From positions 253-64,252 of the IMG/VR virus record IMGVR_UViG_3300029585_000027: DNA of 64,000 nt; one strand, given 5' to 3'. Shown here piece by piece: positions 14,499-25,878 of this stretch (the first letter of the stretch is position 1; each line of letters starts with the position of its first letter). The translations under genes and the position numbers were made by a program. Source of the DNA: a virus. Below the pieces are notes generated by a model. It did no database searches. It was not told where the DNA came from and saw only the letters and a program-made list of their open reading frames with translations.

Positions 14499-14866
14499 GT
14501 GCGTGTGCCTTGTTTTGTGCTATATCCGTAAAGAAAAGATACCGCACAAAAAACGCAAGTAGACACATAATACCTTGAAAGAGTCAAGCAGTCTCCCTCA
14601 CAACGAGTGCCGCTGGCCCTCGTGTTCGGACAGGGTGAGCGAAAGCGAGCGTGCTGATTGCAGCTAGCAAAGAAAAGGGATAAGTAAGGCACCCGGGGTG
14701 AGAGGCGGGGGTAAGGTTCTGGTGCTAACCACTCCCAACTAACGACACGGCTAATCGACAAGGTAACCAGAAGAACACTAGAATACAACGCTAGGTGTAA
14801 ACGGGTTGCACCCCATATTTAGGCGGCCTCAGCAAGTGTCATATAAAACGCGATATATCCCGCGCG

Positions 14867-14890
14867 GCAAGCCCGAGAGGGCTCGGTGTA
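14867..14890. repeat. intergenic repeat copy 1 (GCAAGCCCGAGAGGGC)
   Basis: Exact 16-mer shared with copies near 15952, 18703 and 21510. Confidence 0.85.
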
Positions 14891-15073
14891 TCAATCATCA
14901 TCCTCACAAATGACGTCCAACGTGGTTAGATGGAGTTCATCGTAGAGATCCTTAACCTTACTGTGTTGGTCTTGGGTGATATTGTTTACATGAGAGTCGA
15001 GCAGGTTTGCGACAGACCTTAGACGACTAGCGTAGATCTTGGCAACGATGCCGTATGTCGTTCGCTTCATCAT
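14891..15073 (-). CDS. hypothetical protein
   Basis: ORF ends at TGA abutting the repeat; start uncertain. Confidence 0.5.
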   Translation of the reverse strand: MMKRTTYGIVAKIYASRLRSVANLLDSHVNNITQDQHSKVKDLYDELHLTTLDVICEDDD

Positions 15074-15342
15074 GATGGAATATCTCCATTCGCACAAAAC
15101 GCTTCCCACTGGCCTTTAATCAGGTCCAGATTAAGGTCGCGCCTATTCACTACGCCACTAGTCGTAACGAAAGCTACCCGTGGTCCATTCTTGGGACTGT
15201 TGGTAACGAGAATGTAAGGACTTCGAGAGTAGGTATCTACGATCCAGATTGCCCACTCCCCACTACCGCTAGGTAGGCTGTCGTTTGGTGGACCCAAGAT
15301 CTTGGTAAGCTTGTCGACGACGTTGAGAATTGTGTTTTCCAT
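15070..15342 (-). CDS. hypothetical protein
   Basis: 90-aa ORF. Confidence 0.55.
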   Translation of the reverse strand: MENTILNVVDKLTKILGPPNDSLPSGSGEWAIWIVDTYSRSPYILVTNSPKNGPRVAFVTTSGVVNRRDLNLDLIKGQWEAFCANGDIPS

Positions 15343-15344
15343 CT

Positions 15345-15659
15345 CTAGTTGCCCGTGTGTTTGAACCAGCCAGTAACCTTTGGCTTTTCCTTGACGATTA
15401 CAGGCACGTTGCCCATATCCTTAAGACGAGTGACACCACGAGAGGCATCTAGATCGTCCATATCGTCGAACACTTGCCCGCAGTAGCAACAAACAAGGCT
15501 CATTTCGATATCGTCCGAGCCAATCTCGGAGAACGTCGCGCCTTGCCAAAGAACTTGAGAGGCGGGATGCCTACACTTTTCGCGGATCTTCATTGTTCTT
15601 GTCGTCATCGTTTCCACACTTCCCGCATTGGAAGTTAGTATGCAAAGGAAGATCGTCAC
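15345..15659 (-). CDS. hypothetical protein with Cys motif
   Basis: CRH...CCYC; true start probably downstream of the one given. Confidence 0.5.
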   Translation of the reverse strand: MTIFLCILTSNAGSVETMTTRTMKIREKCRHPASQVLWQGATFSEIGSDDIEMSLVCCYCGQVFDDMDDLDASRGVTRLKDMGNVPVIVKEKPKVTGWFKHTGN

Positions 15660-15720
15660 GCCCGCAAATCCTACAAGGAACGCGGAAGTCGTCTTCGGGA
15701 AAGGTTAATGCAATGAGCAT
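15571..15720 (-). CDS. small zinc-ribbon protein
   Basis: MLIALTFPEDDFRVPCRICG...QCGKCG. Confidence 0.5.
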   Translation of the reverse strand: MLIALTFPEDDFRVPCRICGRDDLPLHTNFQCGKCGNDDDKNNEDPRKV

Positions 15721-15886
15721 CGTTTCTAGTTGTCTCGGTGTTTGCGCCCTATCCAATAGTAACCCATCAGATAGGCGGCGATGAATACTAGCACACTTAG
15801 ACCGATTGTGCAATCTCGATCCAAAAATGGCGAGACGTCGCGTGGTGTTGGTTGTCCCTTCTCGGCATTCATCTGGTTGCTACTAC

Positions 15887-15915
15887 AGTATATCACGGAA
15901 CGGTCAAGGAGTCAA
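15887..15915 (-). promoter_or_regulatory. sigma70-type early promoter
   Basis: TTGACT-17-TATACT. Confidence 0.8.
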
Positions 15916-15951
15916 GTATCAGTAAACAATTCCCTATAAGGGGGGTGGCAG

Positions 15952-15981
15952 GCAAGCCCGAGAGGGCTGAGTGTTTCAGCC
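15952..15981. repeat. intergenic repeat copy 2
   Basis: GCAAGCCCGAGAGGGCTGAGTGTTTCAGCC. Confidence 0.85.
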
Positions 15982-16063
15982 CGGCTCGGATGAGTTGTTA
16001 TGGCTAACGCCTTCGTGTTCGCCGCATCGTTAGTCGGTATGAAACCATAAACGCAAACAGGAA

Positions 16064-16117
16064 CACAAGAAGTGTTAGCCCCCCGGTGACCTCGCGGTCG
16101 ATGAAGGGGGAAACACT
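16064..16117 (-). terminator. probable intrinsic terminator of the amidoligase operon
   Basis: GTGTTTCCCCC...GACC-GCGA-GGTC...GGGGGGCTAACAC followed by TTCTT. Confidence 0.6.
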
Positions 16118-16123
16118 CAAGGC

Positions 16124-16999
16124 TTAGTCCTCCACGCTATCGCGCGCCATCAACTCCGCAAAGTCTTCGTCGGACATTTCGTGGATTCGATCGTTAGCGC
16201 GATCCGCATGCGGACCCATTACGACGGGACGGGTGTAGTCGTAGTCGTAGTCGCCCGGTTCTTCCGATTCTCGCGCCATATCCATAGCGCGCGCCTCGGC
16301 GTCAATGTCGTCCTCGGACCAATCGTCGTCGTCGCCTTCAAGGTCGTGGTGGCTCTTGGCTCCCTTGTTGGTAGACTTGTCGTTGTCACCGTAAACGATG
16401 CCGCTAACGTAGTCGTCACCCCAAGCGTATGAACCGCCATAGCGGGATACCCAGCACGTTTCCGAGCTAGACTTAATCCCTTCTTCCTTGGTGTCCAACC
16501 AATCGCCGAACAACTCGACTTCGCCACCGGAAAGGATAGCGAAACGGCTAGGGGAGAAAGCTTCCACAACATCCTTGCCGAAGTTATGGATAGCAGAAGC
16601 AACTACGCGGGTATCGCTCCAGCCAAACGGGTTCTTGCGCGGAAGTTGCAATCCGCACTCCTCAGCGACCATTCGCCATTCGCCAACGTGGCCATTGTGC
16701 ATAAGCACTGCTTCGGCACTACCCGAAAGCTTAAGGCTAGGCTTTTGTTCGATGGGGAATGGATGCGTCAGTTGCGGCGAGCTATCGCCAACGGTAGTCA
16801 ACCGCGCATGAATCAGGAACGGCAACGGAAGATGTTGCGACAGTTCATGGATAGCGTCTTCGTCCAACCCCTTTTCCCATCGGGTCAAACCCGTTTTGGG
16901 ATCGGTCCACATGATACCCATACCGTCGCGGTTGGTAGTGGCAATGTCTTGAATCAGACTGTAGGACGGACGATTGAAGCACGAAAGAATGCAGCACAT
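16124..16999 (-). CDS. Class II glutamine amidotransferase (Ntn hydrolase)-like protein with acidic tail
   Basis: True start MCCIL gives an N-terminal Cys nucleophile; NRDGMG, HARLTTVG, THPF, MHNGH, SDT. Confidence 0.8.
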   Translation of the reverse strand: MCCILSCFNRPSYSLIQDIATTNRDGMGIMWTDPKTGLTRWEKGLDEDAIHELSQHLPLPFLIHARLTTVGDSSPQLTHPFPIEQKPSLKLSGSAEAVLMHNGHVGEWRMVAEECGLQLPRKNPFGWSDTRVVASAIHNFGKDVVEAFSPSRFAILSGGEVELFGDWLDTKEEGIKSSSETCWVSRYGGSYAWGDDYVSGIVYGDNDKSTNKGAKSHHDLEGDDDDWSEDDIDAEARAMDMARESEEPGDYDYDYTRPVVMGPHADRANDRIHEMSDEDFAELMARDSVED

Positions 17000-17003
17000 A
17001 AGC

Positions 17004-17699
17004 TTAGATCTCCAGGGAGAAGTTTTCGGTGTCGACAGCAGTATCGACAAGGGATTCGGAGTTGTCGATATCGACTTCCGAGATATCGAAACCATCGGGG
17101 GTTTCAATGTCAAACTCGAAAGGCTCATCGGTGGGAACAACCTTTGCCAGATAGGCATCGGTGTAAGCCAAGACGCGGCGCATGAAACGCTTTGCCAGCT
17201 TAGCCATACGGAACATCGGGAGCAAACGCACCTCCAACGTTCCGTGCTTCTCAAACGAACAGAAGTTTACCATTCGGTATCGTTCGTGCATTCTGAAGCT
17301 TCCTTCGTTCCAGTCGCTACGGCAAAACTCATTCTCGCCGTTGAGTCGTGACCAGAAATGCGAGTTACGCACGTTGCATCGTTCGCCAAGCTTACGAAGA
17401 GTAGCCAGAAGCCCGTCTTGGTATTCCTTGTTTTCCGCGATAAGCGAGATAGCCTGGACATTGTTGACGAAACTCATATGGACATGCATTCCACAGGTAG
17501 CGCCAACGTGTTCGGGATAGTTGCCGTCGATGAACTGACGTGCTTCCTTGAGCGTAGCCATAGGGCGCGAAACAATCTCGCCCACCCTCCACTCGCCCCG
17601 CACATTCACGGAACCGTCTTCGTGGAAGTTATCAGGCAATTCGGGTTCTTCGTCCCAACCGCCTTCCAGCTCTACGCCAAAAAGTTTGACGTATCGCAT
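17004..17699 (-). CDS. Putative amidoligase (COOH-NH2 ligase, glutamine-synthetase-like fold)
   Basis: FGVELE, DGSV, EIVS, TCGMHVHMS, RYRMVN, TLEVRL. Confidence 0.75.
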   Translation of the reverse strand: MRYVKLFGVELEGGWDEEPELPDNFHEDGSVNVRGEWRVGEIVSRPMATLKEARQFIDGNYPEHVGATCGMHVHMSFVNNVQAISLIAENKEYQDGLLATLRKLGERCNVRNSHFWSRLNGENEFCRSDWNEGSFRMHERYRMVNFCSFEKHGTLEVRLLPMFRMAKLAKRFMRRVLAYTDAYLAKVVPTDEPFEFDIETPDGFDISEVDIDNSESLVDTAVDTENFSLEI

Positions 17700-18085
17700 T
17701 ACTGGCACCTCGCCGTAATGCTAACGGTGTAGTCCACCGGCTTGACGTGCTGTTCGTAGACGGTAGAGAACCAGTCGCGAATCTGTTCGGCAAACGCCCG
17801 GAGTTGATCGCGCGTGCGCGGAAGTTGAACGGTAACGTCGATACCGTTATCCTTGGACGAACCGACACCAAGCACGATCGGCAACAGTTCATTGTCTTCG
17901 ATGTTGCGCGTGCGACAGTAGTAATACTTGCGCTCATCGTTGCTGTTCGGCAGGTAGTGAACTTCCTTGCGCCCGATGCGACTAAGCACATCTTCCAACG
18001 TCGGCGACGTCTTGACCTGGACGTTAAGACCATCGGCGGTGCGACGGATGCGGAGAGAACAGAAATCGTTTTTCAGGGTTGCCAT
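17699..18085 (-). CDS. hypothetical protein of the amidoligase operon
   Basis: 128 aa; stop overlaps the amidoligase ATG. Confidence 0.65.
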   Translation of the reverse strand: MATLKNDFCSLRIRRTADGLNVQVKTSPTLEDVLSRIGRKEVHYLPNSNDERKYYYCRTRNIEDNELLPIVLGVGSSKDNGIDVTVQLPRTRDQLRAFAEQIRDWFSTVYEQHVKPVDYTVSITARCQ

Positions 18086-18131
18086 TGCTTTCTAGCTAGT
18101 GGGGTTTGGGGTTTGGGGTTTGATGAAGCTA

Positions 18132-18476
18132 CTAGTAATCATCGTCGTAGTCATCGTCAAAGTCTTCGTCATCTTCGTGGTTGTCCATAAAGATATCGTC
18201 ATGAGTAAAGATCGTAAGACCTTCTCCCGACTTGATGCCGAGAATATCACTACCGGGCATGTAATCCAGGTAATAGACATACTCCCCGTTACTGCTTACA
18301 TACTTTTCGTAAACCGATTGTGCCGAATGGCCAAGACGGGTAACGATACAACGAAGAACGTGACGAATCCTACCCGGCGAATAATCGTAGTCGCCTTGTT
18401 CCTTGTTAAGCGTCGGGACGACAAACTCGCCGACCGTGCCGCGAACAAAGGACGCTAGTTGTTCTTGGGTAATCAT
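18132..18476 (-). CDS. hypothetical protein with acidic C-terminus
   Basis: 114 aa; first gene after the promoter. Confidence 0.6.
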   Translation of the reverse strand: MITQEQLASFVRGTVGEFVVPTLNKEQGDYDYSPGRIRHVLRCIVTRLGHSAQSVYEKYVSSNGEYVYYLDYMPGSDILGIKSGEGLTIFTHDDIFMDNHEDDEDFDDDYDDDY

Positions 18477-18485
18477 CGCTGCACA

Positions 18486-18514
18486 AGTATAGCACGGATT
18501 GCGAATCGAGGCAA
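18486..18514 (-). promoter_or_regulatory. sigma70-type early promoter
   Basis: TTGCCT-17-TATACT. Confidence 0.7.
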
Positions 18515-18627
18515 GTTATGGACCATGAATATCAAAATGAGAATCGTGGTTGACAAATGACGCAAAGTGTGGTATTCGCGCACGCGCGCGGAAGTATTAC
18601 TGTCACGCGGTTGTCTCAAAATAAGAC

Positions 18628-18656
18628 TTGACAGACCTTGAATCGTGTGGTATAAT
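18628..18656 (+). promoter_or_regulatory. consensus sigma70 promoter pointing antisense to local genes
   Basis: TTGACA-17-TATAAT with TGTG extension. Confidence 0.8.
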
Positions 18657-18702
18657 TCAGGAGGAGGCATCAGGTGTCGCATATACGGCTATATGTGGGG
18701 GC

Positions 18703-18729
18703 GCAAGCCCGAGAGGGCGGGCTGTTTCA
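18703..18729. repeat. intergenic repeat copy 3
   Basis: GCAAGCCCGAGAGGGCGGGCTGTTTCA; terminal TCA is the stop of the adjacent gene. Confidence 0.85.
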
Positions 18730-18918
18730 ATCTTCATCCTCCAAATAAGGCGCTATACCTTCTTTGTGGATTTCGGGTAGTAAACCCTTCTCGATAGCCC
18801 ACTTTGCAACAGCGCACGCATCCGCAATCAACAACACGTTGTTAAACTGCGCATCGTCTTTCGGGTTCACAATGGTGTTATCCATTGCGTCGTTGATTTG
18901 CTTAGTAGCCTTACGCAT
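18727..18918 (-). CDS. hypothetical protein
   Basis: 63-aa ORF, coupled. Confidence 0.55.
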   Translation of the reverse strand: MRKATKQINDAMDNTIVNPKDDAQFNNVLLIADACAVAKWAIEKGLLPEIHKEGIAPYLEDED

Positions 18919-19074
18919 CTAGATGCCCGGAATAGTGATGCCGCTACGCTTAGCAAGCTTCTTGAGCGCACGAACAACGCGAGCATGTAATGGCTTCCAT
19001 TCTTTGCCGTCTCGCTTGAGTTGTCGCACTACTGCTTCTGCGCGTGCAATGACGATGAATCGCTGGTGTCGCAT
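18919..19074 (-). CDS. small basic protein (51 aa)
   Basis: Manual translation MRHQRFIVIARAEAVVRQLKRDG...; TAG-ATG coupling at both ends. Confidence 0.55.
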   Translation of the reverse strand: MRHQRFIVIARAEAVVRQLKRDGKEWKPLHARVVRALKKLAKRSGITIPGI

Positions 19075-19389
19075 CTAGTTGTTAAGGATCTTCAGTAATT
19101 CAATCTGCGGTGCCGTCATTTCCATTGCGTTGTCAATGAGAGTGCCAAAACAGATAGCGGCAATGAACCCAACGCAAAGCAAGAATACAACGTGCCTATC
19201 TTCCTTTTCCCTTACTTGCATAATGCAAATAAAGATGATGAGCATCGGCAAGCCGATCGTGAGCGAAAGCCAGAAACCAAGGGAGCTTTTCGCATATACC
19301 TCAGCGACCAAGGATTGCCACATTTCTGGCGCACCTTCCGAGATTCTGGCGATTGCTTCCGCAATCTTGAGTTGAAGTTGTTCGTCCAT
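19075..19389 (-). CDS. two-TM membrane protein
   Basis: Two hydrophobic helices; directly after a promoter. Confidence 0.6.
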   Translation of the reverse strand: MDEQLQLKIAEAIARISEGAPEMWQSLVAEVYAKSSLGFWLSLTIGLPMLIIFICIMQVREKEDRHVVFLLCVGFIAAICFGTLIDNAMEMTAPQIELLKILNN

Positions 19390-19397
19390 GACAAGGG

Positions 19398-19426
19398 AGT
19401 ATATCACACGATCATCTAGGTGTCAA
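19398..19426 (-). promoter_or_regulatory. sigma70-type early promoter
   Basis: TTGACA-17-TATACT, TGTG extension. Confidence 0.85.
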
Positions 19427-19488
19427 ATGTGCGAAGTCTTATTCTTATACGATATGTGTGGCGGGCAGGCGCGAGCGGTTTCGGTGTA

Positions 19489-19545
19489 TAAAAAGAAACC
19501 CCTGAAGACCCGAAGGTAGCTCCAGGGGTTTCCCCGCTGCCGGAT
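19489..19545 (-). terminator. intrinsic terminator
   Basis: AAACCCCTG...ACC-TTCG-GGT...CAGGGGTTT followed by CTTTT. Confidence 0.7.
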
Positions 19546-19572
19546 TGTGGGTTTGCGAATTGCGGTCCGGTC

Positions 19573-19869
19573 TTACGCTACGATGAACGTCTCTCCGCTG
19601 ACGTTGAACGATACAAGGGTGGCGAGATTGACCATGCGATACTCGCGTTTGGTCATGTCGAACACGGGAAGGAGGTTACGACGCTTAGCATCGTAGGGGA
19701 GTTCGCCCCCGGCAAGGTGTCGCTTTACGCCTCTACGGCACTTCATTTCGCGCATCGTTCCGTCTCGTTTACGGAAATAGGCTGTAAAGATTCGACCTTG
19801 TGTTTCGTTCCACAAGAATACGCTAGCGCGTTCTCGTGCGATCGGTTGGGGCTCGCGGATTGTCGTCAT
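19573..19869 (-). CDS. SH3/Sm-like beta-barrel protein (WYL_2-like)
   Basis: FTAYFRKRDGTMREM...VFDMTKREYRMVNLATLVSF. Confidence 0.65.
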   Translation of the reverse strand: MTTIREPQPIARERASVFLWNETQGRIFTAYFRKRDGTMREMKCRRGVKRHLAGGELPYDAKRRNLLPVFDMTKREYRMVNLATLVSFNVSGETFIVA

Positions 19870-19898
19870 CGTTTCTTCTAGTTGCCTTCCGTCAGAAC

Positions 19899-19927
19899 AG
19901 TATATCACCATCCCAACGGATAAGCAA
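19899..19927 (-). promoter_or_regulatory. sigma70-type early promoter
   Basis: TTGCTT-17-TATACT. Confidence 0.6.
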
Positions 19928-19960
19928 GGCTATCTGGCGAAAACCAGTCCCATATAGGGA

Positions 19961-20443
19961 CTAGCCTTCGCTTTCGTCGTCCTTCGTGGCGAATGCGGCT
20001 TCGTGCTCTTCGTCGGTGCGCTTCGATTCGTCTGACAGTGGCGTCAGATCGTCGGGCATATCGACGTCGTCACCTTGCTCGGCAGCGGCCAAAAGTGCTT
20101 CGAGTCGTTCGATATCGAACGGGAGTTTGGCGGCGAATGCCGTTGCGCGGTCGCGAGTCTCAATCTGAGACGCCAGACGTGCTTGAGTCTGCTTGATCTT
20201 GTCGTCGATCGACGAACGCACCATACCCTTGCCATCCGGTCCCGGCTGGCTACCTTCCAAGGTGAACCGTGCCGCCTTGAGTTCGGTAGTCGTCTTGCGG
20301 AGACGGCGCTTGATCGCCTTCAGTTTGCCGCTTTCGGTGCTGGTGTCGATCTTGCCCGCCATCTTGGCTTCGAGTCGCGCTTGCTCTTTCTTGAAGTGCT
20401 CCAACATTTCCGCATCGGTGCGGCGGTTTCGCTTGTTTCCCAT
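19961..20443 (-). CDS. coiled-coil hypothetical protein
   Basis: 160 aa, AAGGA upstream. Confidence 0.65.
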   Translation of the reverse strand: MGNKRNRRTDAEMLEHFKKEQARLEAKMAGKIDTSTESGKLKAIKRRLRKTTTELKAARFTLEGSQPGPDGKGMVRSSIDDKIKQTQARLASQIETRDRATAFAAKLPFDIERLEALLAAAEQGDDVDMPDDLTPLSDESKRTDEEHEAAFATKDDESEG

Positions 20444-20502
20444 CGGTCTATTCCTTTTGTGTTCTAGTTGCGTTTGGCGGGATTGCCTTTCGCGTCTGCT
20501 GA

Positions 20503-20531
20503 AGTGTAACCTATGCTAGAACGTTTGTCAA
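20503..20531 (-). promoter_or_regulatory. sigma70-type early promoter
   Basis: TTGACA-17-TACACT. Confidence 0.7.
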
Positions 20532-20665
20532 GTTAGGCACCTCGAATTAGGCGGATAGATCAATATTGAGAAACCCGGGTATATTGGCTTGACGTTTTGC
20601 GGATTGTGTGATACTCGCGCGCGCACGCGCAGATTAGAACGTCTCGCATTGTTTCATATTGAGAC

Positions 20666-20694
20666 TTGACAGGTCGTGTTTTGTGTGATATACT
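20666..20694 (+). promoter_or_regulatory. consensus sigma70 promoter pointing antisense to local genes
   Basis: TTGACA-17-TATACT with TGTG extension. Confidence 0.8.
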
Positions 20695-20733
20695 TCAGGG
20701 GGCACGGGTCTGATATTTTGCGATATGTGGGCG

Positions 20734-20760
20734 GCATGCCCGAGAGGGCGGGCTGTCTCA
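20734..20760. repeat. intergenic repeat copy 4
   Basis: GCATGCCCGAGAGGGCGGGCTGTCTCA. Confidence 0.85.
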
Positions 20761-20780
20761 GAATGAGACCAGATAAGCAT

Positions 20781-20820
20781 AAAAAAAGAACGGGCAGCAC
20801 CTACAAGGCACTACCCGTTC
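20781..20820 (-). terminator. intrinsic terminator downstream of the mini-tmRNA
   Basis: 14-bp stem GAACGGGTAGTGCC/GGTGCTGCCCGTTC (three G.U pairs) followed by T7. Confidence 0.85.
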
Positions 20821-20852
20821 TCAACACCTCAACTCAACTCTCTCAAACCAAA

Positions 20853-20969
20853 TGGTGGAGACGGTGGGAATTGAACCCACGTCCAACTAGGCAAGCCGCG
20901 TTTTTTGCTAGGGCGTTTGGCGCGGTGGGACTCTCACCCTGTTCCTAGTTGTCTAAACCGATCGTCCCC
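20853..20969 (-). ncRNA. miniature tmRNA-like RNA (tRNA-like domain only, 117 nt)
   Basis: 5' GGGGACG-ATCGGTTTAGAC, helix CAACTAGG/CCTAGTTG, GGAC, T-arm GTGGG-TTCAATT-CCCAC, 3' CGTCTCC-ACCA; G3.U70 and A73 present. Confidence 0.85.
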
Positions 20970-20978
20970 ATATGCTGT

Positions 20979-21007
20979 AGTATACCCTAAGATTCGCCCG
21001 TTGTCAA
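20979..21007 (-). promoter_or_regulatory. promoter of the mini-tmRNA
   Basis: TTGACA-17-TATACT, ending 9 nt before G1. Confidence 0.85.
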
Positions 21008-21008
21008 G

Positions 21009-21377
21009 TTATACGGGGGAAATCGGGTTAAGCGGCTTCAGGTATTCCGTTTTGCCGCAATTGCCGCAGACACCTAGCCCGTTGTCGTAGCCGTAGCACC
21101 ATTGGCATTTGACGACACCTTGGCGCACGTCGTCTTTGATCGCGTCGATATCCTCGATCATCAGTCTCATTCCGAGATCGCTGATACCGGGAATCGGTGC
21201 GGTGTTGAATTGGTCGCGGAATAAGTGGTTTGTCTCAACTTGAATCCACTTACCCGACAGCGCCTCTAGTTGCTTCTGCCATTCTGGCTTGTGCAACTGT
21301 CCGCATTGTGGGTTAGCGCCTTTGTAGCACCGACGCACGTATGCACTAGCGGCATCCTCCCTAACACGAATCATCAT
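21009..21377 (-). CDS. hypothetical protein with C-terminal zinc ribbon
   Basis: CQWC...CGNC; start re-assigned downstream of the promoter. Confidence 0.6.
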   Translation of the reverse strand: MMIRVREDAASAYVRRCYKGANPQCGQLHKPEWQKQLEALSGKWIQVETNHLFRDQFNTAPIPGISDLGMRLMIEDIDAIKDDVRQGVVKCQWCYGYDNGLGVCGNCGKTEYLKPLNPISPV

Positions 21378-21444
21378 CGTCTTTTTCTCCGAACGATTAA
21401 CAGAACGGCGACACCACACAACACAAGTAATAGCGTCATGCCTA

Positions 21445-21473
21445 AGTATACCACACAAACCGCCAGAAGTCAA
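21445..21473 (-). promoter_or_regulatory. sigma70-type early promoter
   Basis: TTGACT-17-TATACT. Confidence 0.8.
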
Positions 21474-21509
21474 ACCACAGGGGTCTAACGTTTTGCAATA
21501 TGCTCCGAC

Positions 21510-21536
21510 GCAAGCCCGAGAGGGCGGGCTGTTTCA
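21510..21536. repeat. intergenic repeat copy 5
   Basis: GCAAGCCCGAGAGGGCGGGCTGTTTCA. Confidence 0.85.
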
Positions 21537-21563
21537 GCCCGACCCGAGGGAGAGAGGCGAGTC

Positions 21564-21818
21564 TCAATGTAAGACTTTGTAGCCCAATCCTTGCAACCCG
21601 CTTAGGTCGCCATTGACGCATACGACATTGATAGCAGCAGCTAGACTACTGTAGCCGTTAAACTCCGCCATGGCCAACGTCTTGTTCGTGATAACGTCGA
21701 ACGATGGCACAGCACCACCACTAGCGAACCACCGCGCGAGATCGACCATACGCTCGCACCGATCTTGATCGGTTTCGGTTTCGTCGTTGATGAAAGCAAG
21801 ACAAGCGATGGGGTCCAT
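21564..21818 (-). CDS. hypothetical protein
   Basis: MDPIACLAF..., AGGA upstream. Confidence 0.6.
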   Translation of the reverse strand: MDPIACLAFINDETETDQDRCERMVDLARWFASGGAVPSFDVITNKTLAMAEFNGYSSLAAAINVVCVNGDLSGLQGLGYKVLH

Positions 21819-21856
21819 GGTGTTCCTAGTTGAGTTTAAGGATTTCATAACGCGCA

Positions 21857-21885
21857 AGTATAACACACAAACGCGTAAACGTCAA
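21857..21885 (-). promoter_or_regulatory. sigma70-type early promoter
   Basis: TTGACG-17-TATACT. Confidence 0.8.
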
Positions 21886-21892
21886 GCGATGG

Positions 21893-22165
21893 TCATACGA
21901 TCGTCTCGATCATAGACCGTAGGGCTGTTGCCAGGGTATCGCTTCCGCAACACGCAAGGAATGCGTGCGGGTCGTCGTCGATAGTGTCGCGAATCTCCCA
22001 AGCCGACACTTCGGTAAAGTGTAGGGTGAACCCGTCGCCGTCGTCGTTCGGCTCTACTGCGTCGCAGTTTTCAAACACTCCGCCATCGTAGCCGCGATCC
22101 GCGAGCCACAGTAGCGTAGTGTAATCGCGCTCCGAAAGGGGTTTCGTCTTGTAAGGGTAGATCAT
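21893..22165 (-). CDS. hypothetical acidic protein
   Basis: MIYPYKTK...; after a promoter. Confidence 0.55.
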   Translation of the reverse strand: MIYPYKTKPLSERDYTTLLWLADRGYDGGVFENCDAVEPNDDGDGFTLHFTEVSAWEIRDTIDDDPHAFLACCGSDTLATALRSMIETIV

Positions 22166-22173
22166 GGCACCAC

Positions 22174-22202
22174 AGCATACCACACTAGTTGCCAAAAGTC
22201 AA
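22174..22202 (-). promoter_or_regulatory. sigma70-type early promoter
   Basis: TTGACT-17-TATGCT. Confidence 0.75.
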
Positions 22203-22268
22203 GCCAACACAACAAGAACTAGCCCCAAAACGAGAAGTCACAGATCGTCTCATTATAAGACCCCATCA

Positions 22269-22295
22269 GCACGCCCGAGCAGCCGGGCTGTCTCA
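22269..22295. repeat. intergenic repeat, diverged copy 6
   Basis: GCACGCCCG-AGCAGC-CGGGCTGTCTCA: stem kept, loop changed. Confidence 0.65.
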
Positions 22296-22529
22296 CAATG
22301 AGAATAACTGATAGAAGTTCAGTCCCATATTGAGAAGCGTCAGGTATGACAACGTGGTGAGGTGTCGAGCGTGGGCATTTTGCTCCGTCTCGATCTCAGA
22401 CAAACTGGTTTGTTGCTGGTTCACTAGGTGATCTCGATCAATCTCACAATGATACGGATGATGATAGCCACCGCGACGCATCCGCCTACCGCTACGGCTA
22501 TCCAATGTGCAACGCACGCGAAAGCGCAT
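22293..22529 (-). CDS. hypothetical protein
   Basis: ORF whose TGA lies in the repeat; start uncertain. Confidence 0.4.
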   Translation of the reverse strand: MRFRVRCTLDSRSGRRMRRGGYHHPYHCEIDRDHLVNQQQTSLSEIETEQNAHARHLTTLSYLTLLNMGLNFYQLFSL

Positions 22530-22548
22530 GCGCTAAGGTGCGCGCGCC

Positions 22549-22767
22549 TCATTTGCCGAACACCGTGCAATAGGGGTTGCACTCTTGCTGCCCGGTTTCG
22601 TCGTCGATGGCGAGGCAGTAAACCCGGGCGAGCGTTGCGCCTTCAAACTCGACGTAATCCTTGGCGCAATCAATAGCCGCTGCCGGATTCTTGAGCGGTC
22701 GCGAATCGATAAACGTTTCGGCTGGCAGCTTAGCGTCCGGGAATGAGACCATAATAAGGAATTGCAC
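22549..22767 (-). CDS. hypothetical protein
   Basis: 72 aa, AAGGGAG upstream. Confidence 0.55.
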   Translation of the reverse strand: MQFLIMVSFPDAKLPAETFIDSRPLKNPAAAIDCAKDYVEFEGATLARVYCLAIDDETGQQECNPYCTVFGK

Positions 22768-22779
22768 TGCTTGTCTCCC

Positions 22780-23019
22780 TTAGAGAATCTCGGCGAAATC
22801 GCGTCCGCGCATGAGGCATTCGCCCCATTTGCGCGTATCGGTATCGGCGTGGACAAACTCGCCCCCGTGGCGTTCCGTGAGGATCGCGCACGCTTCGGTA
22901 ACGGTTGCGGCTTCCGTCATCGCCAGACGCACGACCGTTTCGGGGAAGTAGGTTACGACTCCGAAAACGCCATCGGTCGTTGTCTTGTAAACGTGGCCTT
23001 TGCTTTGCTGGTTCTTCAT
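22780..23019 (-). CDS. hypothetical protein
   Basis: 79 aa. Confidence 0.55.
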   Translation of the reverse strand: MKNQQSKGHVYKTTTDGVFGVVTYFPETVVRLAMTEAATVTEACAILTERHGGEFVHADTDTRKWGECLMRGRDFAEIL

Positions 23020-23033
23020 AGTAACCCTATCGG

Positions 23034-23270
23034 CTAGTTGCTCGCCAGACTTGAGCTAGTGGGCAAAGTTTCTGCGAGAATCGCGACGGTTTCCGGCAGC
23101 ATGCGCGCAAACTCGAATCGTGGCCAATCCTCGCAACCGCGCAAGCACGACTTGCAAACGGGCGTCCAATCCGAGCCGGTTTCCTTCGTCGTTGCGTGAA
23201 TCCAGGGGACGCTAACAATGTGCGTAGCCTTGCGTTGGCATTCGATGCACGTTGGTTGTTGGTCTTGCAT
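23034..23270 (-). CDS. small zinc-finger-like protein
   Basis: MQDQQPTCIEC...VCKSC. Confidence 0.55.
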   Translation of the reverse strand: MQDQQPTCIECQRKATHIVSVPWIHATTKETGSDWTPVCKSCLRGCEDWPRFEFARMLPETVAILAETLPTSSSLASN

Positions 23271-23384
23271 GCTGTTACTATCGGCTAGTTGTCCGTAGAA
23301 CTGTAGCACGAGAGAAGGAAAAGCGAGAGAAACCACCACCCCACATAGTCTCATTCCGGGACATAGAGGAGCAGGCGCGCTGTC

Positions 23385-23618
23385 TCAGATTGAGAATGAG
23401 TCTTTACGTGCGTCACGCTTGGCTTGTGCCTCGGCTTCGATGCGTGCCAACCTATCGCGCACGCTAGCCTTTTGTCTCTCGATGAGAATGGGCACTTCGG
23501 CTAGGCTATCTACCTCGCCCACCTCAATCCCAGATCGAGACACTAACCATCGTCCCGCTTGCGTCATGCGCACCTTGCACCCGTCGACCTCGATTGTCCC
23601 ATGTTGAGTCAGCTTCAT
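23385..23618 (-). CDS. hypothetical protein
   Basis: 77 aa, GAGGA upstream. Confidence 0.6.
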   Translation of the reverse strand: MKLTQHGTIEVDGCKVRMTQAGRWLVSRSGIEVGEVDSLAEVPILIERQKASVRDRLARIEAEAQAKRDARKDSFSI

Positions 23619-23634
23619 GATTCCTCTAGTTGTC

Positions 23635-24066
23635 TCAGATTGATTCTTGCCCGTAGGCTGTCAGAATGTCATGCCCCTCGCATCGAATGGCGAGGATACC
23701 CGCCGCACGTAGTGTGCGGTAGCCCTTGCCCGTGCCAGTGTTTACTTTCTTACCGTGGGCGAATGTCCAAAAGGATAGCGTCATGCGCTCGGCGCTGGCC
23801 ATCGCGTGACCCGTGCCCGCAACGGTGCCGTCTTGCTCGCTCTGGTAAACTCCCTGCCGTCCGATCATGTCGCGCACCGTGCCATCCTTGCAGCAGTAGA
23901 GAACGCGAAAGATGCGGTCGCCGCATGCGCGCATAAACTGCCAGACTTCCGACGCGTCGCCGAGTAGGGTAACGTCGCCACGTAGGACGAAATCGCCTTG
24001 CCGCTTAGCGTAGCTATCTCGCTTGGCTTCCCACTGCTTTGTTAGGTTGTGTTCGGTTGTTTGCAT
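23635..24066 (-). CDS. SH3/Sm-like beta-barrel protein, likely paralog of 19573-19869
   Basis: FRVLYCCKDGTVRDM...KGYRTLRAAGILAI matches the F-x-V-x-F-x-K-x-DG-x-x-R-x-M...YR pattern. Confidence 0.55.
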   Translation of the reverse strand: MQTTEHNLTKQWEAKRDSYAKRQGDFVLRGDVTLLGDASEVWQFMRACGDRIFRVLYCCKDGTVRDMIGRQGVYQSEQDGTVAGTGHAMASAERMTLSFWTFAHGKKVNTGTGKGYRTLRAAGILAIRCEGHDILTAYGQESI

Positions 24067-24105
24067 GGTAGACCTATCGGCTAGTTGCTTGGATTACTTG
24101 AGCGA

Positions 24106-24222
24106 TTAAACAGCGAATCCGCCGAGCATCGTGTAGAGCGACCAGCACACCGCGCCCGGGATCGAACCCAGAACAACACACTTGAGGAGCCAGGGACCGT
24201 AGTTGCGTGCGATGTTTTCCAT
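24106..24222 (-). CDS. small membrane protein (38 aa)
   Basis: MENIARNYGPWLLKCVVLGSIPGAVCWSLYTMLGGFAV. Confidence 0.45.
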   Translation of the reverse strand: MENIARNYGPWLLKCVVLGSIPGAVCWSLYTMLGGFAV

Positions 24223-24274
24223 GTTACTTGTATCGACTAGTTGCGTTGGAAACTTGAGCTGCTTGCCCTTGTTT

Positions 24275-24397
24275 TTATGCGAAGACGACGAACGCGCTAA
24301 GGGCGACACCGAACACCGTGCCGAACATGAACGTTGCACCGAAGCGAATGCGGTTGGCGTTGAAGATGGCGAAGTTGTTGTTGCGGTTGTTGCTCAT
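24275..24397 (-). CDS. small membrane protein (40 aa)
   Basis: MSNNRNNNFAIF...FMFGTVFGVALSAFVVFA, AAGG upstream. Confidence 0.45.
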   Translation of the reverse strand: MSNNRNNNFAIFNANRIRFGATFMFGTVFGVALSAFVVFA

Positions 24398-24702
24398 AAC
24401 ACTACCTTTATCGGCTAAGCATAGCTCAAACTTTAATGATGGGGAAAGAAAACGGCGAGAATCTGACGTGCCAACCATGATCTTTTGGGGTGGGGGTTTT
24501 TCAACTTGAGACGCCCCCTGTTGGCGCTGAGACACGGGGTGGCATGCTACAGCAATTCACACGCTGTATTTAGAGGATGAAACACCTAAACGGCTGGGGT
24601 ATGGGTATGTTTTTGGATATTCGTCTGGACTTTTCGCTCTTTTCTCCATATTATACTATTACGACTTAGTGTAGAAACCAACGAAACAGCTAAACTAAAC
24701 CT

Positions 24703-24989: not shown

Positions 24990-25250
24990 ATGGGCACATC
25001 ATTTCCTAATGGCGACAAGCCACAGAATAAGATCACAATTTCCAAGAGTAGCGGCACAACTCGTCGCGTAGATGCTGAAAGCGGCAAGGCCGATCGCAGT
25101 TTCGCTCAACCCAACCCGAACATCCCACCCCGCGAAGTAGATGCCAAGGCGCACGCCAACGTCCAAGATGAACTTGAAGCTATCAACAAGAACTCAAGAA
25201 CTGGACGTAAGCACGAGCGGGATGACAAGAGTGGTTCACAAGGCGAGTGA
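24990..25250 (+). CDS. hypothetical hydrophilic protein
   Basis: MGTSFPNGDK...; 86 aa. Confidence 0.55.
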   Translation: MGTSFPNGDKPQNKITISKSSGTTRRVDAESGKADRSFAQPNPNIPPREVDAKAHANVQDELEAINKNSRTGRKHERDDKSGSQGE

Positions 25251-25878
25251 TCACGTCGGTAGCGGGATCTACTACAATGACGTCCTTGACCTAGTTGAGA
25301 CGATCGTTTCTATGAAGAAGGGGAAGTATAACTTCCCTGGAGTAGATCCAGAGGATTTGGCGCAAGATATTCGGGTTATGTGCTGGCAGGCACTAGAAAA
25401 CAAGTTCGACCCGACCAAGCTTGGAAAATCGGTATTCCACTTTGTCGCTCGTGTAGTTGACAATGGTCTATACAACAAGTTTCGCGGTATCTACCTAGAT
25501 AACAACCCACCGTGCCTCCGATGCGAGCACTACATTAAGGACACTAAGTCCTGCGCGATTGAGGAGGTGGGTTGTGACCGCATCGTGTCATACAGACAGC
25601 GCATGGCTCAGAAGCGTGCCATTGCTGCGCCACTGAGCTACAATGCTCAACTCGATCAGGATGACAACTCTGATTACACGGCGCACGAGTCGTTGAGTGT
25701 AGGATCCACCACTGGTGTTAGTGATCTAGATGACACTCTGAGGTCTTCTCTAGATGTCGCTCTATTACCGTATTACGATCAAATGATCAATGGTAAGTCA
25801 GAAGCGGTTCCACTCCACTATCGCAGGTTGGTTCAGAAGCAGGTGAAGAGCATAATTGAAGGACAGGATGATGAGTAA
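25222..25878 (+). CDS. phage RNA polymerase sigma factor-like protein with 4-Cys insertion
   Basis: Region-2-like EDLAQDIRVMCWQAL...FDP...FHFVARVVDNGLYNKFR; CLRC...C...C insert; start uncertain. Confidence 0.65.
   Translation: MTRVVHKASDHVGSGIYYNDVLDLVETIVSMKKGKYNFPGVDPEDLAQDIRVMCWQALENKFDPTKLGKSVFHFVARVVDNGLYNKFRGIYLDNNPPCLRCEHYIKDTKSCAIEEVGCDRIVSYRQRMAQKRAIAAPLSYNAQLDQDDNSDYTAHESLSVGSTTGVSDLDDTLRSSLDVALLPYYDQMINGKSEAVPLHYRRLVQKQVKSIIEGQDDE

Follow-up and report, generated by a model that had tools for sequence, protein, structure and literature searches.

The stretch analysed here, called the window throughout, comprises 64,000 nucleotides (positions 253 to 64,252) of the IMG/VR virus record IMGVR_UViG_3300029585_000027, an 82 kb contig (G000) estimated to be ∼49% complete. 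The contig encodes TerL, a portal protein, a major head protein and a tape-measure protein of 2123 amino acids (aa). TerL is less than 30% identical to that of any cultured phage, with its best matches in Bacillus and Clostridium phages, a megablast search of 10 kb against cultured phages gave no match, and no T4-like features were seen in the phage. The T4-type affiliation implied by a first-pass annotation of the sequence was therefore not borne out. Between 12 and 24.5 kb of the window the genes lie on the minus strand. Family matches among the early open reading frames (ORFs) were limited to GATase_6 and WYL_2. Our subject is a short non-coding element that recurs at the borders of the early transcription units.

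The 12-mer GCCCGAGAGGGC occurs exactly five times, always on the plus strand, at 14871, 15956, 18707, 20738 and 21514, the positions already listed in the first-pass annotation, whereas 0.00 copies are expected from 100 shuffles. There are no further exact copies in the 82 kb contig. A profile built from 14 copies was used to scan the contig for diverged ones, and it recovered all three of those suspected earlier near 22273, 19460–19490 and 23360–23387, as matches at 22245–22296 (E 1e-6), 19433–19492 (E 6.5e-9) and 23341–23389 (E 1.4e-4). The rest of the contig gave no other profile match at E < 0.1. The eight copies thus all fall within 14.8–23.4 kb of the window, in the early region only, and all are intergenic and co-oriented with the minus-strand genes, as had been noted. 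Since those genes run on the minus strand, the element is read here in gene-sense orientation. Alignment of the copies shows that the 12-mer is the core of a module of ∼62 nt, longer than the 12–27 nt unit first described, which in gene sense consists of TGAnACA, a GC stem-loop, CTCGsGCwTGCC, CACATATCG and GAC.

The copies, all on the minus strand, are labelled A to H. Exact cores are found in A (14834–14896, core 14871–14882, E 8.6e-11, −11.3 kcal/mol), B (15922–15981, core 15956–15967, E 8.6e-8), C (18672–18732, core 18707–18718, E 5.5e-11), D (20704–20763, core 20738–20749, E 3e-13) and E (21479–21539, core 21514–21525, E 3.8e-11, −13.5 kcal/mol). Copy F (22245–22298, E 1.1e-6) is diverged, with its stem kept and its loop changed, copy G (23341–23390, E 1.4e-4) is the most diverged, and copy H (19433–19494, E 6.5e-9), also diverged, keeps all the sequence boxes and is almost stemless (−1.1 kcal/mol). 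Six of the eight fold at −9 to −13.5 kcal/mol, the nearly stemless ones being H (19494) and G (23390). The first TGA of copies A, C, F and G is the stop codon of the upstream ORF (14891–15109, 18727–18918, 22293–22529 and 23385–23618, respectively), so that the TCA words at 14891, 18727, 22293 and 23385 are indeed stops, as read earlier from the plus strand.

A relative of 175 kb (G001), whose TerL is 81% identical, carries nine copies, all in gene sense and all in the syntenic early region at 142.9–151.1 kb. Searching IMG/VR with a degenerate pattern gave no further true copies; an exact 16-mer gave 22 single matches in other contigs, which were chance-like, and the remaining one in G001. Two of three early genes used as probes in IMG/VR gave no further relatives. 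In metagenomes, the degenerate pattern matched 80 stretches, from which the profile confirmed 134 copies in 46 marine contigs. The family now stands at 151 copies (142 distinct) in at least 48 contigs, with up to ten per 8 kb, and within every contig the copies are co-oriented. In representative bacterial genomes the family pattern produced 29 single matches, three of them at an nhmmer E of 0.01 or better (the best at 20 bits); because these matches are single and at chance level, they give no host lead. The element is therefore real, strongly non-random and widespread. Given its strong positional bias and its conservation in relatives, the objection that the first-pass annotation had raised against itself, of copies scattered without bias or unconserved in relatives, falls away.

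Across the family, the consensus is tnTGAnACAcCnaGcCcnCTCGgGCtTGCcnccc-acATATcGc-N-GAC. Three sequence boxes, ACA, CTCGsGC-wTGC and CATATCG, are held in fixed register and arranged around the GC-rich stem-loop, the pairing register of which floats. ACA, CTC and TGC are near-invariant, and the position of CTC is identical in 110 of 116 distinct cores. A Watson–Crick stem of at least 4 bp is possible in 105 of the 116, always using the conserved CTCGsGC arm, in registers (i+j) of 29 (21 cores), 30 (10), 31 (33), 35 (31) and others, and column-shuffled controls fold far less well than the cores (z −11). As a result of the floating register, RNAalifold gives no consensus structure on either strand and no pair of columns has high mutual information. 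Two constraints thus coexist, one on the fixed sequence boxes and one on a generic stem-loop. The hairpin proposed earlier is upheld in this general form, while the GNRA loop proposed with it is not a conserved feature: GAGA is the commonest loop on the antisense strand, and only 35 of 87 distinct cores could adopt a C-GAGN-G tetraloop register. We also tried to call the acting strand from G·U pairs. Of the 87 cores, 80 fold better as the antisense strand, and shuffles of the same composition reproduce this bias; since base composition fully explains the preference, the strand cannot be called from pairing and the attempt was rejected.

Neither strand has a U-tract after the stem (TTGCC follows on the gene-sense strand), in agreement with the earlier view that this is no classical terminator. 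The ratio of C to G is 1.2–1.4 across the element (∼100 nt) compared with ∼0.85 in flanking coding DNA, a modest bias. The boxes are non-palindromic, there are no inverted core sites at the two ends of the element, and Rfam gave no match to it at E up to 10. We know of no host-factor site that the boxes resemble, and a literature search for the 12-mer returned nothing relevant.

A different, palindromic word lies close to the element. The 15-bp sequence GTCTCA-N3-TGAGAC overlaps the left end of 39 of 141 family copies, and 18 of its 23 near-matches in the contig fall at 18613–24512 of the window; the left end of copy D completes it as GTCTCA-GAA-TGAGAC. Its left half is often coded by the last codons of the upstream ORF (ending EVSV-stop or VSL-stop). 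It looks like a candidate operator for a dimeric regulator. Acidic C-terminal tails in the upstream ORFs showed mild enrichment only. Downstream of copy A by ∼170 nt, at ∼14690–14712 on the minus strand, lies the motif GCCTCTCACCCCGGGTGCC, which recurs at the same relative place in four metagenome contigs (L126, L117, L099 and L136) and may be a further conserved non-coding element.

The start of the element coincides with the end of the preceding unit, either its stop codon or the U-tract of its intrinsic terminator. Of 139 copies, 100 open with TGA at a constant position, and in 47 this TGA closes an ORF of 40 or more codons in frame. Canonical intrinsic terminators immediately precede 29 of the 139, their U-tracts extending into the element; copies D and H are the cases in the window. 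The terminator stem before copy H (19494–19533, minus strand) has a predicted −30 kcal/mol (z −4.35) and its U-tract enters the copy; that before copy D (20786–20822, minus strand) has a 17-bp stem with U7 and lies 22 nt upstream. Stems behind terminators are no weaker than the others (−7.1 versus −8.1 kcal/mol, p 0.54), and the suggestion that the stem is dispensable there is accordingly not supported. Because the terminator-abutting copies keep equally strong stems, the idea that the stem is a mere terminator of upstream genes is disfavoured.

The terminator before copy D belongs to a tmRNA-like gene of 117 nt (20853–20969, minus strand), which matches Rfam RF00023 at 68 bits, the match spanning the model ends only. 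The RNA has a G3·U70 acceptor stem, an encoded CCA and its own σ70-type promoter (21007–20979); ARAGORN reported nothing for it.

Downstream of the element, 83 of 124 copies have a gene-sense σ70-type promoter no more than 190 nt away, at a variable distance of 24–126 nt and outside the conserved block. Many of the copies without a promoter in that interval belong to a longer module in which the promoter lies beyond 200 nt. In the window, such promoters follow copy B (15915–15887), copy E (21473–21445, 10/12, followed by a near-leaderless ATG) and copy H (19398–19426, minus strand, 11/12, 8 nt before an ATG). Beyond the longer modules, minus-strand σ70-type promoters lie at 18486–18514 after copy C, where a four-gene operon is driven, and at 20503–20531 after copy D. 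Early genes often look leaderless or nearly so, with a TATACT-type −10 sequence 5–9 nt before the ATG (19390, 21439, 18476, 22165 and many metagenome loci).

A second class of σ70-type promoter lies on the opposite strand at a near-fixed distance of 41–47 nt and fires back through the element. It accompanies 34 of the 124 copies (27%) and is absent from 73%. The plus-strand promoters pointing back into copy C (18628–18656, TTGACA-17-TATAAT, 12/12, TG-extended) and copy D (20666–20694, 11/12, TG-extended) are the strongest in the region. The long modules after these two copies also contain alternating (CG)n tracts (18540–18610 and 20590–20650), which adjoin a second, weaker plus-strand promoter-like site, an arrangement that is also conserved at 146.4 kb of G001 and at several metagenome loci.

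Comparison of relatives shows what happens between the copies. G000 and G001 agree in the flanks of the early region and share one inter-element cassette, that between copies D and H, encoding a 160-aa protein and a WYL_2 protein. Early proteins that the two genomes have in common are encoded at 23635–24066, 19961–20443 and 19573–19869 of the window. All remaining cassettes are unrelated and the modules persist. Similarly, the metagenome contig L151 differs from L099 and L136 by one extra cassette plus module. When contigs are aligned with one another, 18% of internal alignment ends lie within 40 nt of an element compared with 6% for random positions, a three-fold enrichment. The synteny comparison suggested in the first-pass annotation thus supports its view of a boundary element between cassettes or transcription units, with modules whose intervening cassettes differ among relatives. 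Identity between copies is 0.709 within contigs and 0.705 between contigs, and 259 of 1000 permutations reach the observed difference, so concerted evolution within genomes is not supported. As within-contig identity equals between-contig identity, the similarity of the copies results from selection for a common function and not from recent copying or gene conversion.

Several protein families bear on how the element might work. No T7-like RNA polymerase (RNAP) and no β or β′ subunit (PF00940, PF00623, PF00562) was matched in the 82–175 kb of three relatives, the contigs of which are incomplete; the PF00940 control matched in no genome, so that search says little. A tyrosine recombinase (PF00589) was likewise not matched in the same sequences. 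Two to three σ70-family proteins are encoded, at L065:1468–2103 (G000, ∼80.7 kb), at 25141–25878 of the window and, in G001, at L069:1381–2007. One of 211 aa matches the Sigma70_r2 and FliA/WhiG models and adjoins an SSB gene, and the window protein is a weak match (E 0.004).

Another short motif is spread over the whole contig. CAACTAG lies on the coding strand at gene junctions (for example at 15345, 15726, 19075, 23034 and 23285 of the window), the plus strand of the 82 kb contig containing 39 CTAGTTG and 24 CAACTAG words. The TAG frequently serves as the in-frame stop codon for the upstream ORF, and the motif is also present in a more distant relative, G002. In an extended form, CAACTAGCCGATAG, it stops 7 nt short of an ATG and contains GCCGATAG, which resembles the σ28/FliA −10 element, GCCGATAA.

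The closest known counterparts of the element are the promoter-early stem-loops (PeSLs) of the T4-type phages RB49/phi1, PST/T4 and nt-1/KVP40 (Arbiol et al. 2010, PMC2839356; Comeau et al. 2014, PMC4122927). These are composite terminator/promoter cassettes that flank ORFans and mediate shuffling, and both terminator activity and mini-circles have been shown for them (PMC2839356, PMC4122927). The likeness extends to several features: co-oriented intergenic modules of ∼60–100 bp are repeated in a hyperplastic, ORFan-rich early region (here eight in 8.5 kb, and nine in G001), a GC stem-loop is combined with a host σ70-type early promoter, the module begins at the upstream stop codon, and relatives differ by whole module-flanked cassettes, with indels and replacements bounded by modules. 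There are also clear differences. The conserved part here is a separate ∼45-nt block of invariant boxes at a variable distance upstream of the promoter, and not the promoter itself; a quarter of the copies have a fixed-distance antisense promoter; and the phage is not T4-like, unlike the hosts of PeSLs. The element is thus a PeSL-like boundary that is distinguished by extra fixed sequence boxes, separate from the promoter.

Our preferred explanation, to which we give a probability of roughly 0.5, is that the element is a PeSL-like boundary module at the upstream edge of early units, carrying a docking site for a factor and serving also as a recombination seam. The molecular mechanism that we infer has two parts. 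The fixed boxes would be bound, probably as DNA, by a sequence-specific factor (an early protein of the phage or one of the host), and the generic stem-loop would damp transcripts that enter the border; this division is suggested because the boxes are kept regardless of likely gene-sense transcription and the stem register floats. Between them, boxes and stem would shield adjacent units from both read-through and the antisense promoter. Since similar sequence of ∼60 nt is directly repeated at intervals of about 1 kb, the copies would also be seams for the gain, loss and replacement of whole cassettes, which the comparison of relatives supports. The first-pass annotation had listed four mechanisms without choosing among them; the data favour sequence-specific recognition combined with a generic stem-loop, and speak against a simple terminator on account of the 29 copies that keep their stem behind a real intrinsic one.

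Several points weigh against this explanation. Family searches of the early ORFs pointed to no binding factor, the only matches being the two mentioned above. A DNA-binding dimer needs no floating hairpin, and two separate constraints must therefore be assumed. The enrichment of breakpoints is modest, and intergenic DNA diverges faster anyway; nor is there an excess of within-genome similarity, and hence no sign of frequent gene conversion. Finally, two more distant relatives, G002 (estimated to be 83% complete) and G003, contain no copy, though both contigs stop inside the early region. These two independent relatives have contigs (L053:1–1900 and L055) that each stop ∼1.8 kb beyond the homologue of window positions 23635–24066, which may reflect an assembly break at repeats or a genome end.

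Alternative explanations differ mainly in the strand and the molecule on which the element is thought to act. For gene-sense transcripts, it might be a factor-dependent, Rho-type terminator or a 3′-end hairpin: translation would end at the TGA of the element, after which C-rich RNA would load Rho or the stem would protect the 3′ end of the upstream mRNA. The embedded stop codon in 47 of 139 copies, the raised C/G ratio and a stem that is nearly always there with no U-tract after it are all in line with such a function. However, the modest size of the C>G bias, the undiminished stems behind canonical intrinsic terminators and the invariant boxes in fixed register, left unexplained by rut sites that are degenerate, make it unlikely. 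An intrinsic terminator differs from the element in its U-tract, and true U-tract terminators adjoin copies D and H. On the opposite strand (the plus strand of the window), the element could be the leader of transcripts from the antisense promoters, either an attenuator giving an RNA of ∼70 nt or a nut/put-like site through which anti-early transcription heading for the plus-strand late genes would be modified. The strength and fixed spacing of those promoters make this attractive, as does the co-orientation of the copies, all of which plus-strand read-through would cross alike. The layout, moreover, recalls the lambda nut site, with a linear box (GCGATATGTG), a spacer of ∼8 nt and a short GC stem, often with a GAGA loop, in several copies per early region, some of them just downstream of a strong promoter. 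Yet most copies have no such promoter upstream of them on the plus strand, the hairpin register and loop lack the fixed geometry of boxB, no consensus structure is seen on either strand, the G·U asymmetry is explained by base composition and the stem is without a U-tract in this direction too. In addition, the site would be oriented against the genes, its linear box does not resemble boxA and no N-like protein is known here, and we regard a leader function as improbable.

In a bolder proposal, the element is a polar, factor-bound switch on antisense transcription and so a built-in early shut-off device at every cassette border. Transcription from the consensus σ70 promoters 45 nt from the element would cross the early units in the reverse direction, toward the late genes, and the element with a phage-encoded factor would decide whether the antisense transcript stops after ∼70 nt or runs on and silences the early cassettes. 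We consider this unlikely. The element might instead be a promoter itself, read by the host RNA polymerase with a phage sigma factor: TGAnACA would serve as the −35, the spacer would be 16–17 nt, the −10 would lie around wTGCC and transcription would start in CACATAT, the stem-loop being placed within the spacer, an arrangement shared with many PeSLs. This geometry fits a σ70-family promoter, the phage has its own σ70-family proteins, a place behind terminators is natural for a promoter, and PeSL stem-loops commonly lie between −35 and −10 (PMC2839356). Against this, the bipartite motif is almost confined to the early-region copies and is not found before replication or structural genes, the invariant CTCGsGC would fall in the spacer, and most units already have a σ70 promoter just downstream. 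The wTGCC sequence, moreover, is unlike any −10 known to us, and a promoter of this kind seems doubtful. A hairpin promoter for a phage polymerase, of the N4 type and among the mechanisms first proposed, differs in requiring a polymerase gene, which the searches described above did not find. A dedicated recombination site, attC-like or an HUH-type single-stranded hairpin, cut by a specific recombinase, would account for the position at cassette boundaries, the co-oriented copies and a structure conserved more than its register. It is nevertheless very unlikely, since integron attC sites have inverse cores, whereas this element ends without them, a tyrosine recombinase was not matched in the 82–175 kb of three relatives, and the cassettes comprise several genes together with their own promoters. 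In sum, the element is neither a classical terminator nor a lambda-type nut site, and it does not form a promoter class detectable across the genome.

With the element profile, the early region used for host takeover can be recognised by sequence in a widespread uncultured lineage of marine tailed phages, and PeSL-like modular shuffling is not confined to T4-type phages. We infer that the element points to a sequence-specific factor reading a ∼45-nt non-palindromic site at the borders of early units. If that factor were found, it would explain the separate control of many small ORFan cassettes, and the module could serve as a portable insulator.

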